Shown here: positions 3,562 to 55,831 of the stretch, in pieces | Layout of the letters: every line of letters starts with the position of its first letter | Numbering within the stretch: the first letter of the stretch is position 1 | From: Centroscyllium fabricii | Taxonomy: Eukaryota | Assembly (NCBI GenBank): GCA_051313645.2 | Contig: JBNRSN020000025.1 | Span: 24,738,001 to 24,802,000, forward strand | Direction: 5' to 3' | DNA length: 64,000 nt | Translations under genes and position numbers: made by a program | The notes under the pieces: generated by a model | Told to the model about the DNA's origin: nothing | The model's database searches: none | Seen by the model: the letters and a program-made list of their open reading frames with translations, nothing else

Positions 3562-4878
3562 ATGGAAGGTATCAAACCCCCAGCAAATCTTCAATTAGAC
3601 GGCAATGTGGATGAAAATTGGCGCGTATTCAACACAGATTTATGTTATACCTGACGGCCATCGAGGTGACCACAAGCGCAGGCACACGGAAAGTTGCGCT
3701 TCTACTGACGGTTGCGGGCATGCAGGCAAACCAGTTGTTCAATATTTTTGCTTTTGAGTTCAAGGAGGACAAAAGTGACTTTAATAAAGTTATGAAAAAG
3801 TTCGAGGACTTTTGCGCACCAAAGAAGAATGAGACCTACGAAAGGTTCGTGTTTTGCTCCAGAACACAGAAACCGGGGGAGACCTTTGATGTCTTCGTGA
3901 CTGACCTAAAATTCAAAGCACATTCGTGCAATTTTAAGGATCTAAAGGATTCGATGATAAGAGATCAGATAGTCTTCGGCATATATGATAAGAAACTGCA
4001 GGAAAGAATGCTGAGAGACAGCGATTTGAAGCTGGAAGAGGCAGCCAAGATCTGCCACATGAGTGAGCTATCAGCATCGCAAACAAAAATGTTTGAGGGG
4101 AACGTCCAGGGGCTGCAGAGTCTTCCAGTAGATGTAATATAGAGAAGGAAGTACGGAGAGCCACGAGAGCTTGCAGACTATCACAAAATGGCGGCGCACA
4201 ACGCGAGGGAGCCTTGAGGGGGCCACCAAGCACAAAATGGCGGCATATGACTACAGAGAGGCCAGAGGGCCCAGCGACTACAAAATGGCGGTGTTTGACT
4301 ACAGAGAGGCCAGAGGGCTCAGTGAGTACAAAATAGCGGCATTCGAATGCAATCGGTGTGGCAACAAGCATGGGGCCAGGCAGTGCCCAGCATATGGAAA
4401 AAGCTGCGCGAAATGCAAAGGAAGAAATGACTTTACAAGAATGTGCCTTTGGGAACAAAGCAAAAAGCCGGTGCATGCAGCAGGGACAGCAGAAGCGGGG
4501 GCCCAATCATGGTATGTGGGAATGGTGCGAGACACTCAGCCCACAGGACCAAACAAAGAGGCCTGGGTCGCTCATATACAAGTAAATGGAACAACAATCC
4601 CCTTTAAGCTCAATGCGGGAGCAAAAGCGAACTTGATAAGCTGTGGGGATGTAAAAAAACTAAAAGTTAAGCATCAAATGATAAAAAGGACGGTGTCCTT
4701 AAGAGCGTACAATGGACAGAGCATAGAAACAAGAGGAATGTGCAGATTGAAGCTGATAGTTAAACAGCGCAGGCACTTACTCAACTTTGTGATAGTGTCA
4801 GAAGGGCACGAATCTTTATTAGGTGATAAGGCCTGCATGGACTTGGGATTAGTCAAACGAGTGTACACTATTAATGAC
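3562..4878 (+). pseudogene. gag: Gypsy gag and protease (frameshift near 3630, stop at 4140-4142)
   Basis: MEGIKPPANLQLDGNVDENW..., ERFVFCSRTQKPGETFD, MIRDQIVFGI. Zn knuckles CNRCGNKH...C and CAKCKGRND...C. Protease motif mutated to LNAGA. Confidence 0.85.
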
Positions 4879-5093
4879 CATAATGTGAAGGTGCCGGTGT
4901 TGGACTGGGGTGGACAAATGCAAGAACTCACACAACACCAGATTATACTCCAACGGTTTTATTTTAAATCACAAGCTTTCCGAGCGTTCTGCCCCTTCGT
5001 CAGGTGAACACCTGACGAAGGGGCAGAACGCTCCGAAAGCTTGTGATTTAAAATAAAACCGTTGGACTATAATCTGGTGTTGTGTGACTTCTT
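4879..5093. mobile_element. Penelope-derived inverted (hairpin) unit with hammerhead motifs, inserted in Gypsy pol
   Basis: Arms ~4922-5006 and 5009-5093. 12-bp TSD actattaatgac at 4867-4878 and 5094-5105. Same family as 22326-22635. Confidence 0.85.
5009..5046 (+). ncRNA. Minimal hammerhead ribozyme motif (Penelope type)
   Basis: CAC-CTGACGA-A-GGGGC/AGAAC/GCTCC-GAAA-GCTT-GTG: core boxes, stem II, palindromic AAGCTT in place of stem III, short stem I. Confidence 0.65.
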
Positions 5094-7543
5094 ACTATTA
5101 ATGACATAAATGAAGCTCAAAGTGAACGGCGAGGAAGCTTGGACATAAAGTGGGACAATATTGTGCAGAGATATGCGGACGTGTTTCGGGGGTTTGGAGC
5201 GCTGCCCTTCACGTACTCGATTAAATTCAGGGAGGATGCACAACCAGTTATACATGCACCCCAGAGAGTGCCAGAGGCCCTCAGCGAGAAGCTGAGAAAG
5301 GAGCTGGTGCTAATGGAGGGATTGGGTGTGATAAAAAGAATAGAACAGCCAACTGACTGGGTCAATTCCATGGTCTGTGTCAGTTCAAAGACCAATAATA
5401 AACTGAGTGTATGCATGGACCCCAAAGATTTGAATGCAAATATAAAGAGGGAACACTATCAGATCCCAAAAAGGGAAGAAATAATGAGCAAAATGGCAGA
5501 AGCCAAATTCTTTTCGAAAATGGATGCATCCCATGGATTTTGGCAACTTAAATTGGATGAGGAAAGTGCCAAGCTCTGTACATTCAACACCCCGTTTGGG
5601 AGGTACTCATATCAAGGCCTGCCATTCAGAATAAGCTCAGCCCCAGAAATATTCCACAGAGTGATGGAAACGATTATAGAGGGCTTGGAAGGGGTGCGAG
5701 TGTATGTAGATGATATCGTGGTATGGGGTTCCACACAGAAGGAACATGACAGCAGGCTGGAAAAAACACTCCAGCGCATACAACAATATGGGCTCAAATT
5801 AAACAAAGAAAAATGCCAATTTAAAGTACAGGAGATCACTTTCCTGGGAGATAAAATCTCCACAAGAGGGGTACAGCTGAATCAAAATAAGATTAAAGCC
5901 ATACAGGACATGGGAATGCCTGAGGACAAAAAAGGGATGCAAAGGGCCCTTGGCATGGTGAACTATCTAGGGAAATTTATCCCAAATCTGGCCACGAAAA
6001 CTGGGCACCTGAGGAAGCTGTTGCAACCAGAGACAGAGTTCCAATGGGTTCATGAACACAAACAGGAATGGAAGGGGCTGTTGCGGATTTTAGCAACCGA
6101 ACCCCTGTTAAAATTCTTTTGTCCAAAAAAAAGGACAAAGGTGTCAACCGATGCTTCCAAGAATGGGCTCGGGGTGGTAATACTACAAGAGGATGAAGGT
6201 GAATGGAGGCCAGTGGCATATGCATCAAGGTCAATGACGGCCACAGAGTGCAGGTATGCACAGATTGAAAAAGAATGCCTGGTTCTTGCATTTGGGTGTG
6301 GAAAAAAAGATCCCGTGCTGAGGAAGGTAGTAAAAAACCTTCAGGAGGGATGGAAGAGAGGTTCCTGCAAGCAATACTACCAGATACAGGGGGAACTGTC
6401 AGTGGTAAATGGAATCCTACTAAAAGGGGACAGAATTGTGGTGCCCACCTCCATGCAACCGGAGATGTTGGGGAGGATACATGAAGGGCACCTGGGGGTC
6501 GAGAAATCCAAACGGCGGGCGAGAGAGGCACTGTACTGGCCAAATATGAATGCGGACATTGACCAATTAATAAGTGAATGTGCCACATGCCAGGAATATC
6601 AATATAAACAAACTAAGGAACCCCTCCTAATGACAGAAATCCCTAATCGCCCATGGGAAAAAGTAGGAACGGACATGTTCAATTTTGGGGGAAAGGACTA
6701 TTTGTTAGTCATAGATTACTATTCAAATTACCCTGAGATAGCCCTGCTGTCTAGCACCATGTCAAGAGGTGTTATTACACATCTGAAATCAATCTTTTCA
6801 AGACAGGGCATCCCCAGGATACTGGTGTCGGATAATGGACCCCCATATGCCAGCCAAGAATTTAGGGCATTTGCCTCCGAACACGATTTCCAACACATAA
6901 CGTCTAGTCCGCACTACCCTCAGGCAAACGGAAAGGGCGAAAAGGGAGTGCAAATAGTCAAACAACTCCTTAAGAAAGCAGAGAGCAGCAATGCCGACCC
7001 ATAATGTCATACAGGGCTGCACCACTGGCAAGTGGCAAGTTGCCAGCCGAGTTGCTAATGGGCAGAAAACTAAGGACAAGAATACCTTGTTACACTGCAC
7101 CAGACCAAAGAAATGATAACTGGGCGGAAAAGGCTAGAAGGCTGCAATTGTCCCAAAAGAGGTACCACGATAGGAATGCCACAGGACTAGCCCCATTGCA
7201 AGAAAGGGACATGGTCCGCATTCAGGGACCAGAGTCGTAGTCAAAAAAGGCCACAGTCCGACAGTAGGTTGCCCCCAGATCCTACAATGTAATGACGGAA
7301 TCAGGAGAGGTGTACCGAAGGAACAGGAGGCACATCTTGAAGACAAACGAGACATTTTGCCCCCAAGAGGGGGTAGAGGAAGAGGAACAGATGGGGGAGA
7401 CCTCACAAATGGAACAGGAAACAAGGGACGTGAGTGGTCCAGAGACGGACACAAGAGATAGAATGGGGGACACTATACCAACAACGGTCCCACTAAGAAG
7501 GTCACAAAGGGCCAGAAGGCCTGTGATCAGAATGGACTTGTGA
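5094..7543 (+). pseudogene. pol: Gypsy pol (RT, truncated RNase H, integrase)
   Basis: RT: MDASHGFWQ, LPFRISSAPEIF, YVDDIVV. RNase H: TDASK...YAQIEKE. Integrase: HEGHLG...CATC, IDYYS, SDNGP, PQANGKGE. Frameshifts after 7003. Confidence 0.93.
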
Positions 7544-39192: not shown

Positions 39193-39899
39193 CCCCCACT
39201 CCCACTCTCTCTCAAACTACAGGATCCATTCCTTTTGAGGAAGAACTTGAAGAGAATCGGTCTGGGAAGACAATGCAAAGTTGCCGATTATTTTATTTTA
39301 TTTTTCTTAAAATAACGCACATTACTTGAAACACTCAGGATTGTACTGGGTTTAAGGTAGAGAAGGAGGTGCTGAGGCTTCTATTTCGGAACAGAATAAA
39401 ATGTCTGTTTAAATGTCCGGTTCTCCGCGCCAATTAGCTGTAGTGACTGTAGTCCAAACCCCACGTTTATTATTCCATAGCTCCGGCACCTGGTGTTAAA
39501 TCACTGCTGTTATCCTGGACTATTCACTCAGCTAAAGCTATCGATAGCTTTAATTAATACTGTCATAACTGATGGGGGTTATTAGGACGCATTATTGAGT
39601 TAGGATAGCATGCCAATCTGTTCCCCTGCCACTACCAGTTGTGCTAAAGCTATATACTGTAAATCGGTCAAGTCTCTAAGTGTTAATTAGCTTAACATGT
39701 AATTTTTAACGCGAGTACCTTGTGCACTGAATTAAAATTACTTTTTTTGTGATAACTTTGATTTTGTTTTGGTAAATTTCCACGACAGATCATCTGCAGA
39801 TGAGTTCTAGAATTATTTTTTAAAAAGAAAAAAAATAGTGATTTTTTTTTAAGCAAACTGTCTTTTACCGTGCAGATACTTCCCGGGGTTTAGAAGCGG

Positions 39900-40136
39900 G
39901 GTTCGTGCAAGTGGGAGAGAGATAAAGTGTGAAATGGCGTGAGGGAGGCAGAGATAATTGGTCTGATGGAGTTGAGGACAGATCGCGGCCAAATGATGAA
40001 TATATTCAAACTTTTCCCTGCGTGATGGTGTCAGATTGAAGGCTCTGTGCGCATGTGCGAAGGTGTCCAAACTGACAATGCCAGGGAGATAGCGTGTGCG
40101 ATTCTCTGAAATCACGACCAAACGCCGACAGACAAC
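39900..40136 (+). promoter_or_regulatory. PRDM16: PRDM16 proximal promoter / 5' UTR
   Basis: Two AGATAA sites and the block gcgcatgtgcgaaggtgtccaaactgacaatgc (40049-40081), which I recall from mammalian PRDM16/MECOM 5' ends, directly upstream of the ATG. Confidence 0.75.
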
Positions 40137-40173
40137 ATGAGATCCAAGGCAAGGGCGAGAAAACTGGCCAAAA
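40137..40173 (+). CDS. PRDM16: PRDM16 coding exon 1 (MRSKARARKLAK + 1 nt, phase-1 intron)
   Basis: ATG AGA TCC AAG GCA AGG GCG AGA AAA CTG GCC AAA A|gtaggt. Matches the PRDM16 N-terminus and its 37-nt exon 1. The paralog MECOM reads MRSKGRARKLAT. Confidence 0.9.
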
Positions 40174-42189
40174 GTAGGTCCCTATTTTCTTCTCCTATCT
40201 CTCCGCACTTTTTTTTAGATCCTCTGTGTAGGCTTCCAAAAAGACCCTCCAAAAAAAGCAACAACACCAGACGTTCCGCGATACACCCATGGTCTTTGTG
40301 AAGAAGCGGTCAGGAATGCGTTTTCTCCTCCAGATGATGTCGGTGCGGTGGGGACGATCAGAATGATGTGCACCACGGGCTCGCAAAAAGGCTGGGGCGC
40401 AAGAACTTAAGACTTGAACGCTCTGGCCACAAGAGCGGCGCGGAGCTCTCTTTCTGAACAAGTTTCCCCACCTTGTTTATTTCTCTCATTCAACAGAAAC
40501 TTCCAGGCCCCCCGCGTCTCGACCCGAGAGGTTGAGAAGTTGGAGAGAAAAAACAAAAAAATAAAATAAAATGAAAGTTATCGAAGTTGACGAAAAGATA
40601 TGTAACTTTAAAAAAAAGACATATATATATATATATATATATTGGGCCATTGCAAAGTATAAACAGTTTTCCCAGAGCCTTAAATAGTGGGCGCTAGAGC
40701 ACCGTTGAAGAGCTGAAAGCTGCTGGCCAACTGTTCGTCTCTGGTTGAGAGGGGGCAAAATATCTTGGGGGAGTCGGTTTCATAGACTGAGTACGATTAG
40801 CAGCCGAGCCGTACCGGGGTTTCTGAGAAACCGGGACTAATGTTTTGGGGGCTGCTTCGGGGAATTAACAGTGTCAATGTTGTGCGGGAGAGAATCGCAC
40901 AGGACTTGCAGGGATCGGTTTGGAATAACACAGCTGACAAGTTTAAACTTTCAATGTAACCATGCCAGATCGTGAGACAGTGCTTTATGCGAAGGAAGTC
41001 TCGGATCTTGGAGGGAGCTTTTCAAAGCGTTATGGTTTTTTAAATATATTTTAATTTATAAAAGCATTTTATTTTGACTCGTAGTGTGTCAAATGTTGGA
41101 GTCGCGCTGAATATTAATCTTTAACCCGTAGCCCGAAGAAAAGCATGTGTGTGTGTGTGTTTAAAATGAAATTATATTCACGTGTTAGGACTTTAGACGT
41201 TTCTATGAGGCCGAATGTAGGTTAGTTAGATCTGTGCGGGCTTCGGTTGTTTGTTGTTTTTTTTAAGGAGATCGCCGTTCTGTAGTTGGGAAGTGTCTTT
41301 TTGTTATGATCCACACTTTCTGCTTCCGCCTCTCTTGCACGATCGCGTTGGTCAGTGTGAATGTGTGTGTGAGTCTGACCTGCTCCTACTTTCAGTTTGA
41401 AGCCTCGCTTTTCTCGCCAGCTTCTTATTTTTCTCAAACTGTCCGAAAGCGGGAACTATCAAACCTAATAGAAACCTTCTGAAAAATAAAAGATGCAAAT
41501 TATTTAACTTTTAAAGTTTGAATTGTCGGTAACTTTAACAGTCACCACTGTATGCAGAAACAAGTCTGCACATTCATATATAATAGTAGGTATACATAAT
41601 AGTGTTTATATATTTGTATACTTGATATTATATATTTATGTATTCTTGAAGTTTTTAATACATCCATGTCCTTTATTAATTGACATGACGAGTCATTTAC
41701 AAAAATGAAAGAGGAAATTAAAGTTTATTTTCTGGTATTTAGGTCAAGTTGAATTCCACATATACATATATATTTATATCACTCTATGTTGCACGGGCAG
41801 AATATCTGTTTTAAGTTATTCTCTGGAGAGGCTTCGTATCCAGTGATCCCTGATTTCATCTCCCTAATGAGAAGAATTAATTACTGAGGGCGCTTTTAAA
41901 ATAGCCTGTTCATATGTGTGATTGTGTTCTAAAGTTCCAGAGACGTGTGTGTATGTATGTGCGTGTATGTATGTATATATATATCAGATGTATTTATAAA
42001 TATTTAACTGTCGCAATTAACCACATTAATTAACAAATTGGCTAATGGACTTAAACACTTTTTTCTAAAATTTGGATATAATTTTGGACCACAATTTATT
42101 TATATTGCAGTAGCTTTTGTTGCTTGCAAGTGGCGAAATTGTTTGATGAATGGCTGTGTCCCAGTATTTTTCTAAGTTGTTTTGTTTGT

Positions 42190-51151: not shown

Positions 51152-51720
51152 ACAAAAGCAAAATACAGGTTCAACACCGTTATAACGGCACGGGCGGGAC
51201 TAGGCCCGGGCCGGTATAGCGAAAAAAACAGAAGAACGAAGCCGGCCAGTGTGCATGCATGCACCATTCAAAATGGCCGCACGCATGCGCATAACATTGG
51301 AAATGGCCGCTGCAAAGTTTTGAATGACGTGCGCATGCGCCGCCGAACGGCGAGCGCATGCGCAGATCATTCAAAAATGGCCGCCGGAAGTTTTGAATGG
51401 TCTGCGCATGCGCTCGCCGTTCGGCAGCGCATGCGCAGGTCATTCAAAACTTCCGGCGGCCATTGTGAATGATCTGCGCATGTGCTTGCCGTTCGGCGGC
51501 GCATGTGCATATCATTCGCTGAAGCATCGATCGTGGCGCCCATTTATGCTGGCCAACTGAAGTTGCCGGCTTTCCGGTTACCGGATAAACGGTGTTCAAC
51601 CTGGACTACGGATGCTGCCGATCTGAAATAAAAACACAAAATGCTGGAAATACTCAGCAGGTCAAGCAGCATCTGTGGAGAGAGAAACCGAGTTAACGTT
51701 TCAGATCAATGACCTTTCAA
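51152..51720 (-). mobile_element. Penelope pseudo-LTR fragment interrupted by a MITE
   Basis: acaaaagcaaaata|...|ctacggatgctg...aatgacc, flanked by the direct repeat tttcaagctac. Confidence 0.75.
51166..51603. mobile_element. Tc1/mariner (Tigger-like) MITE
   Basis: TIRs caggttcaacaccgtttat / ataaacggtgttcaacctg, TA on the left side, palindromic GC-rich interior. Confidence 0.8.
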
Positions 51721-53530: not shown

Positions 53531-55831
53531 AGATTCAGATTCGTTTATTGTCAGGTCACAGATATACAGGTATAAATGCGAATGAAAAACTTGTGTGCAG
53601 AGCTCCTCAACAGTGCATTAACAAAACAAAAAACAATCATCAAACCAAATTTACAAAGTTACAAGTTTACAAAATGCACATTACAAAATATACACAAAAT
53701 ATACCAGTAAGTATACAATATAAATACAAATACAGTACCCAATATACATAGAGATATAGAAATGTATGTGGAGGTTGTGCAAGTGTGCAGGGGTTTTGCT
53801 GGTGCCGGCTCACACCAGGTGGGTATGAGCAAAGTGCAGGAGTGCAGGTAAGGGTGTCGAGGTTTGAGGGTTCTGGGTGGAGTGAAGGTGCAGTGGTGGT
53901 AGTAGAGTGCATTGGTGAAGGGACCAGTAGGGTGCGGTGGTGAGGTGGGAGGTGCCTCTCTGTGATTCACCGTATACTAACCGGGGGGGCATGGGGGGAG
54001 TCTATGGGGGGTGGGGGGAGGGAGTCCATGAGGGGTGGGGAGTGCTGGCCCCAGACTGTTGCAGTGAGCAGGTGTTAGCTGTTCAGCAGCCTGATGGCCT
54101 GGTGGTAGAAGCTGTCCCGGAGTCTACTGGTCCGGGACCTGATGCTGCGATACCGTCTGCCAGACGGTAGCAGCAAGAACAGTCTGTGGCTCGGGTGACT
54201 GGAGTCCCCGATGATCCTCCGGGTCTTCAACAGACAGCGACTGGTGTAGATGTCCTGGGGGGAGGGAAGCTCACCTCCAGTGATGTGCTGGGCCGTCCGC
54301 ACCACCCTCTGCAATGCTTTGTGGCTGAGGGCAGTGCAGCTCCCGTACCAGGCGGTGATGCAGCCAGTCAGGATGCTTTCAATGGTGCTGCTGTAGAACG
54401 ACCTGAGGATGCGAGGGCTCATGCCGAACCTTTTCAGACGTCGGAGGTTGAAGAGGCGTTGTTGTGCTTTCTTCACCATCTTTCCAGTATGTTCAGTCCA
54501 TGTCAGGTCCTCGGTGATGTGTACACCGAGGAACTTGAAGCTGCTGACCCTCTCTACTGCAGTCCCATCAATGGTGATTGGAGTGTGTGCTCCTCCCCGC
54601 TTCCAGAAGTCCACGATCATCTCCTTGGTCTTGTTGGCGTTGAGGAAGAGGTTGTTTTCCTGGCACCAATGTGTCAGGGCTCTAACCTCCCCCCTGTAGG
54701 CCGTCTCATTGCCATTGGAGATCAGGCCCACCACCGTCGTGTCATCCGCGAATTTGATGATGATGTTGGAGCTCTGCATGGCCACACAGTCATGGGTGTA
54801 CAGGGAGTACAGGAGAGAATTGAGCACACATCCCTGGGGGGCTCCCGTGTTAAGGGTCAGTGGGGAGGAGGTGATGCTGCCCATCTTCACCACCTGGCAA
54901 CGGCCTGACAGGAAGTCAAGGATCCATCTGCACAGGGAGGTGTTCAGGCCCAGGGCCCTGAGCTTGGTGTCGAGCTTGGAGGGCACTATGGTATTGAACG
55001 CTGAGCTGTAATCCACAAACAGCATTCTCACATAGGTGTTCCTCCTGTCCAGGTGAGAGAGGTCATTGTGCAGTGCAATGGCAATTGCATCATCAGTGGC
55101 TCTGTTTTGGCGATAGGCGAATTGCAGTGGGTCCAGGGTAGCAGGTAGCACAGAGCAGATAAAGTCCTTGACCTGCCTCTCAAAGCACTTGCTTATGATA
55201 GAGGTAAGGGCAACAGGACGCCAGTCATTTAAGCAGGTTACCTTGGTTTGTTTGGGTATAGGGACGATGGTGGACATCTTGGAGCATGTGGGGACAACAG
55301 ACAGGGAAAGGGAGAGGTTAAAGGTGTCAGTAAATACTCCTGCCAGCTGATCCGTGCATGCTCTAAGGACGCGGCCAGGGATGCCATCTGGGCCAGCAGC
55401 CTTGCGGGTATTAACCCGCTTGAAGGACCTGCGTATGTCGGCCACAGAGATGGAGAGTGTACTGACCTCATTGGCAGCAGGGGCTCTCTCCGGGAGGACG
55501 GGATTGTTAGCCTCGAAGTGAGCGTAAAAGGTGTTTAGCTCATCCGGGCGAGAGGCAGCGGTGTTCACTACACAGCTGGTTTTCTTTTTAAAGTCTGTTA
55601 CACTTTGTAATCCCCGCCACATGCTCCTCGCATCGGTGGTGTTGAACTGTGATTCCACCTTGTCTCTGTACTCACAGTTGGCTGTCTTGATGGTTTTGTG
55701 GGGAGAAGCAGGATGGAGGAGTGGTCCGATTTGCCGAATGGAGGGCAGAGGAGGGCTTTGTATGCATCCCGGAAGGGGGTGTCGCAATGGTCAAGGGTCC
55801 GGTCCCCCCGTGTGTTGCAGCTGACGTGTTG
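53531..55831 (-). mobile_element. Rex1/Babar non-LTR retrotransposon, 5'-truncated with an internal deletion
   Basis: RT ORF, APE C-terminus (QHVSCNTRGDRTLDHC...FGKSDH) at ~55697-55828, 3' AATAAA plus (gaatct)n tail, aattag on both flanks. Confidence 0.9.
54075..55696 (-). CDS. Rex1/Babar reverse transcriptase (open but 5'-incomplete)
   Basis: KAAGPDGI, NDWRPVALT, QFAYR, FVDYSSAFNT, GAPQG, KFADD, FKFLG, AIRLLNS. Confidence 0.9.

Follow-up and report, generated by a model that had tools for sequence, protein, structure and literature searches.

The N-terminal 12 residues of PRDM16 bind RBBP4/NuRD, and the amine of Met1 makes salt bridges with RBBP4 (PMC6379669). Full-length PRDM16 is the NuRD-binding isoform; its counterpart is a truncated, cancer-linked form (PMC6379669). 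The DNA that precedes the exon encoding this N-terminus can be compared with several described systems. TATA-less vertebrate promoters of the NRF1 type (PMC11269187, PMC10810270) carry sites for this factor mostly upstream of the transcription start; from there NRF1 activates, and it represses starts upstream of its own site, which are derepressed when the factor is lost (PMC11269187). A translated upstream ORF is already known in the human PRDM16 leader: the Ribo-seq ORF c1norep25, an upstream overlapping ORF (uoORF) whose tail overlaps the main start (PMC10032668). PRDM16 and its paralog MECOM share conserved noncoding sequences, i.e., short noncoding DNA conserved across vertebrates, and the two pairs listed in the part of PMC3595034 covered here measure 238–706 bp and lie in introns of PRDM16, away from its 5' end. 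Finally, the conserved-peptide uORFs of the ESUCA set (PMC7530721) are AUG-initiated short ORFs with conserved residues that lie upstream of regulatory genes; neither PRDM16 nor MECOM was found in the main text of that report.

The DNA studied here (the window) is a stretch of 64,000 nucleotides from Centroscyllium fabricii. An initial annotation of its letters had proposed that a block just upstream of PRDM16 was either a core promoter or a translated uORF. Which of these does the sequence support? The gene itself is entered as follows.

40137 to 40173, plus strand: coding part of PRDM16 exon 1, comprising 12 residues and one further base, with a GT donor at 40174; it encodes the RBBP4/NuRD-binding N-terminus.

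For comparison, a metagenome collection was scanned with 19 bases of the block, and four loci matched. Three of them (L001, L002, and L004) were dropped as chance matches that had only a common 19-mer; the other, L003, is a vertebrate PRDM16 exon-1 ortholog that aligns across positions 39993–40179 in BLASTN (E = 6e-31). All conservation results below compare the window with this one ortholog. The exon-1 motif had no matches in a collection of genome contigs or in one of viral contigs, and a PDB search with exon 1 returned a single, irrelevant match (E = 1.1).

The coding part of exon 1 is identical to L003 at 36 of 37 positions. Both this part and the six bases that open the intron hardly vary at the base level, beyond what the peptide alone would need. 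The tail of the human PRDM16 uoORF is the overlapping frame at the main start, and it agrees with L003 at six of six residues and with the window at five of six, which ties both sequences to PRDM16. Start codon, basic N-terminus of 12 residues, and donor agree with human PRDM16, and the exon is assigned to this gene, with its separation from MECOM drawn partly from presumed residues. An assignment of the window to MECOM was rejected because the exon and leader match human PRDM16 via L003.

We then read the ORFs upstream of this exon. As had been annotated, an ATG at 40053 opens a frame of 18 codons that closes with TGA at 40107–40109, 27 nt short of the main ATG (40137), and a 4-codon mini-ORF (40078–40092) lies inside it.

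40053 to 40109, plus strand: 18-aa ORF with a weak start context (C at -3, T at +4).
40078 to 40092, plus strand: nested 4-codon ORF with A at -3; its start and the position of its stop are kept in L003 (TAG vs. TGA).

Two features of this region had been missed. The 18-aa ORF shares its frame with the main ATG at a distance of 84 nt, and five further ATGs (39934–40025) lie upstream of it, such that the 203 nt preceding the main ATG hold 7 ATGs against 3.9 expected. How unusual is such an ORF? Among 1260 100-nt segments of the window, 84.8% contained at least one ATG, 56.7% contained two, and 9.9% contained a closed ORF of at least 18 aa; an ATG open for at least nine codons occurred in 12.7% of 9129 37-mers. 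Because such ORFs are common in segments of the window, the 18-aa ORF alone is within chance expectation.

The conservation of the region is another matter. Alignment with L003 delineated these elements:

40027 to 40081, no strand assigned: conserved zone of 55 bp, identical to L003 at 52 of 55 positions without gaps.
39993 to 40002, no strand assigned: upstream conserved block of 10 nt in the window/L003 alignment, containing two ATGs.
39950 to 39957, no strand assigned: upstream conserved block of 8 nt in the same alignment, with a GATA-type motif.

The labels GATA-type, MEIS-type, and SOX-type are used here presumptively. The 55-bp zone contains perfect runs of 14 nt (40027–40040) and 37 nt (40045–40081) on one diagonal, and the flanks are weakly similar (47/87 identical upstream, 13/27 in the late leader, 24/57 in the intron). 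As judged from this single ortholog, the conservation of the block is beyond chance. Its limits are informative: the zone begins 26 nt ahead of the ATG at 40053 and ends at codon 10, and the eight nucleotides just before the ATG are all identical. Codons 1–10 are identical at 29 of 30 positions, and codons 11–19 at only 14 of 27, with gaps, while the ORF continues. In L003, the counterpart ORF has the same weak context (C at -3, T at +4) but runs for 35 aa in a different frame from the main ATG, and its stop overlaps that ATG. Length, stop, and frame thus all differ between the window (18 aa, in frame) and L003 (35 aa, out of frame), and in this alignment the conservation does not follow the ORF. 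The idea that an N-terminally extended PRDM16 is the normal product was also discarded, given the in-frame stop here and the shifted frame in L003.

We considered whether the first ten residues are nonetheless translated and selected as a ribosome-stalling or trans-acting peptide. The window and L003 agree in all ten residues and both keep the frame open, and the lone base change among the 30 nt is silent (with one silent and no replacement change, the numbers are too small to be decisive). However, only one third position in ten has changed, a sign of constraint on the bases themselves. This last argument must be tempered: the scarcity of silent change in codons 1–9 is weak evidence against selection on a peptide, as the true coding exon also has only one change in 37 nt. 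Other observations also speak against a peptide. The conserved zone extends past the ATG by 26 nt on the 5' side, the ATG itself has a weak context and projects outside the human transcript (see below), and the C-terminal part of the peptide is not conserved. Stalling peptides usually act through their C-terminal part. Two tested features of conserved-peptide uORFs, namely retention of the ORF's anatomy and conservation bounded by the ORF, are absent from the block in this comparison. Unlike the members of the ESUCA set, its ORF has no conserved stop, length, or frame, and it is probably outside the mRNA. Selection on a peptide is thus, in our estimation, very improbable.

The location of the ATG relative to the transcription start was estimated by projection from human data. 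The human CAGE peak p1@PRDM16 is at hg38 chr1:3069203 (hg19 2985767; PMC7397866 Table S12a), a published PRDM16 gene start is 2985742 (taken as hg19, equal to hg38 3069178; PMC3893250), and the uoORF c1norep25 begins at 3069195 (PMC10032668 supplement). The coordinates of this uoORF put the human main ATG at 3069260. The first residues of the human uoORF match codons 13–16 of the block frame of L003, which start 36 nt past the block ATG. A spacing of 36 nt also holds in the window, which lacks the uoORF's start ATG. The projection uses the 36-nt spacing of L003 and presumes that the block occurs in human with equal spacing. That human PRDM16 carries the block is a presumption shared with the initial annotation. 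The block ATG then projects to 3069159 and so precedes p1 by 44 nt and the published gene start by 19 nt, and the nested ATG projects to -19 from p1 and +6 from the older gene start. The main start itself projects, in the window and in L003 alike, to a T/A pair, which in the window is 40090/40091 and would mark the start site in C. fabricii.

40087 to 40092, plus strand: GATA-type hexamer holding the projected main start (A 40091, after T); the motif is in the window and in L003, and the start is projected from human p1@PRDM16 via L003.

To the extent that the L003 spacing holds, then, transcription of human PRDM16 is projected to start downstream of the block ATG, an arrangement that the initial annotation had regarded as contradicting its uORF. 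The 18-aa ORF is likely to be mostly untranscribed.

The human uoORF merits closer comparison with the block ORF. Both are upstream ORFs in the PRDM16 leader, but the human ORF begins 36 nt beyond the block ATG, with codon 13 of the L003 block frame, at an ATG that the window does not have. It has been placed in a young, de novo class, with a mammalian PhyloCSF score of -119 and no MS study (PMC10032668). L003 has a counterpart of its start (1352–1423) in the human frame relative to the main ATG, though the human ORF is classed as primate-young. By eye, part of the human uoORF peptide is frameshifted in L003, which suggests that the uoORF is conserved as DNA rather than as a peptide. It is also the sole PRDM16 entry among the 7,264 catalogued human Ribo-seq ORFs (PMC10032668 supplement). 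Two MECOM rows of the catalogue (169.14 Mb) probably represent EVI1 promoters and not the MDS1 5' end, given MECOM UTR coordinates from PMC8270899 and a build offset that we deduced. Against a start downstream of the block ATG, this uoORF begins 8 nt ahead of the p1 summit, which implies that some transcripts start further upstream. Because the calling of Ribo-seq ORFs is restricted to annotated transcripts, the catalogue is not independent of the annotated start.

We next examined the motifs of the conserved zone. The annotated placement of the ATG at 40053 within an NRF1-like 10-nt site (40049–40058) with one mismatch to the consensus was borne out.

40049 to 40058, no strand assigned: NRF1-like palindrome with one mismatch to the consensus, kept in L003; its centre gives the AT of the upstream ATG.
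40029 to 40038, no strand assigned: left arm (10 nt) of an inverted repeat centred on 40053; the one mismatch between the arms is kept in L003.
40068 to 40077, no strand assigned: right arm of the inverted repeat, containing a MEIS-type pentamer overlapped by a SOX-type motif.

The palindrome is the only NRF1-like site in L003 and, of eight in the window, the only one outside a single intronic element. In ITC, the equivalent single change in an NRF1 site gave a KD of 0.66 μM vs. 0.31 μM, the lowest among eight single changes (PMC10810270 Table 2). We thus regard 40049–40058 as a candidate NRF1 site bearing the best-tolerated mismatch, with flanks that differ from those of the oligonucleotide in that study. 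The likeness to NRF1-type promoters consists of one near-consensus site some 40 bp upstream of the projected start and of the lack of a TATA match in 39881–40180. In contrast to those promoters, the predicted site here is flanked by an inverted repeat and forms part of a near-invariant stretch of 55 bp, and the G+C content of the region around the block is only 47%.

The nested ATG is located inside the SOX-type motif that overlaps the MEIS-type pentamer, and GATA-type hexamers occur at 39920, 39952, and 40087. Factor-binding motifs likely account for the two ATGs of the block, which would be their by-products.

On a larger scale, CpG observed/expected is mostly 0.5–1.0 across 20001–48000 vs. 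mostly 0.2–0.6 in the flanks, at a G+C content of about 40%; this region resembles an AT-rich unmethylated domain.

The inverted repeat raises the prospect that the block is transcribed and acts as RNA, i.e., as a hairpin or as a site for protein binding, within the 5' leader or a divergent transcript. The repeat, 10 nt with one mismatch, was matched in 28 of 3000 dinucleotide shuffles and in 34 of 1162 55-mers of the window; it was found post hoc. Its arms are invariant and offer no compensatory change, folding of the RNA was unremarkable (z = -1.0 and -1.8), Rfam had no matches in the 64,000-nt window, and the left arm would lie, by projection, far ahead of the human start. RNA structure was rejected on account of the weak z-scores, and we hold an RNA element in general to be a distant prospect.

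Taken together, these data lead us to conclude that the 55-bp zone is probably a conserved proximal or core promoter of full-length PRDM16 that acts as DNA. Of the two possibilities in the initial annotation, the promoter gains from conservation that ignores the ORF and from a projected start that is downstream, and the uORF loses from the differences in length, stop, and frame in L003. In the mechanism that we propose, the two inverted motifs would flank a palindromic activator site, and together they would place initiation some 40 bp downstream; the NRF1-like palindrome, with the main start predicted to lie about 40 bp beyond it, would help to set initiation just downstream of itself. The ATG at its centre would consequently be left out of most PRDM16 mRNAs. 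It is this predicted position of the start codon, before the start of the mRNA, that favors a promoter over a translated mini-gene. The annotation had also suggested that the block tunes the long isoform against the short; this is plausible only in the sense that the promoter would drive the exon that encodes the NuRD-binding N-terminus.

The promoter could also have a second use. Minor transcripts with upstream starts, or MECOM transcripts, might carry one or both ATGs as repressive uORFs whose effect is independent of their sequence, such that the choice of start site sets the amount of full-length protein. The best support comes from the nested 4-codon ORF, which has A at -3 and keeps its start, length, and stop position in L003. 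The human uoORF, catalogued as translated, starts upstream of the CAGE summit, and the derepression that follows NRF1 loss concerns starts upstream of its site (PMC11269187). On the other hand, the nested start lies in an invariant block and its stop in the conserved GATA-type hexamer, and both may be passengers. Relative to the main start, its ATG projects to -19, and relative to the older gene start to only +6. PRDM16 appears once in the portion of the PMC10032668 supplements covered here, even though 221 ORFs of 3–15 aa are also reported there, and the two MECOM rows, as noted, seem to belong to EVI1 promoters. On balance, we consider this dual use unlikely, though it is the strongest of the competing explanations.

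A bolder conjecture extends this idea to both paralogs. The block may be a start-site switch that both genes share and that predates the genome duplications of vertebrates. While NRF1 occupies its site, downstream starts would yield a leader free of the block ATGs; with the site vacated, upstream starts would capture the palindrome's ATG, and less of the PR-domain, NuRD-binding isoform would be translated. Alternatively, in the present sequence, in-frame read-through would produce an extended N-terminus that loses the Met1 amine–RBBP4 contacts. We rate this conjecture as quite doubtful. If MECOM shares the block, it would belong to the same class as the paralogous conserved noncoding sequences of PMC3595034, but it is not among the pairs listed in the part of that paper covered here.

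Intron 1 and the remainder of the window contain further elements. A MITE-like element in intron 1 (51166–51603) ends in inverted repeats of 16 nt that are 94% complementary, and it contains three 72-nt repeats internally as well as nested palindromes. This CpG-rich element holds seven of the eight NRF1-type sites of the window, four of them perfect, along with motifs that we presume to be YY1-like, and as a mobile element it may spread clusters of promoter-like motifs. A perfect 14-nt match between 40682–40695 of the window and 1928–1941 of L003, at a similar distance into intron 1 and with weaker similarity around it, presumably resembles part of a CTCF motif. Judged from translations, 3615–7004 contains gag/pol frames, in pieces, of an LTR retrotransposon that we take to be of a Gypsy-like family. 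On the minus strand of intron 1, a reverse-transcriptase-like frame stays open for 571 aa (54075–55790) and belongs to a non-LTR retroelement.

In the literature covered, which was largely openly accessible, we found no description of the block as a promoter or a uORF. Searches of the PMC7889888 supplement (11 files) and of supplement file 13 of PMC7397866 gave no matches, and neither the PRDM16 nor the MECOM promoter is dissected in the covered portions of PMC8076227, PMC13246443, and PMC13067999.

Translation ahead of the human PRDM16 coding frame has thus been catalogued before, for an ORF at another ATG. Very conserved promoters are common in developmental regulators, and a promoter at this location would be of a known kind. 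If that interpretation is true, the zone would provide a compact, 55-bp target for finding what turns on full-length PRDM16. If, in addition, MECOM shares the block, or if the choice of start exposes the buried ATG, the balance of long and short isoforms of both genes would be tied to one ancient element.
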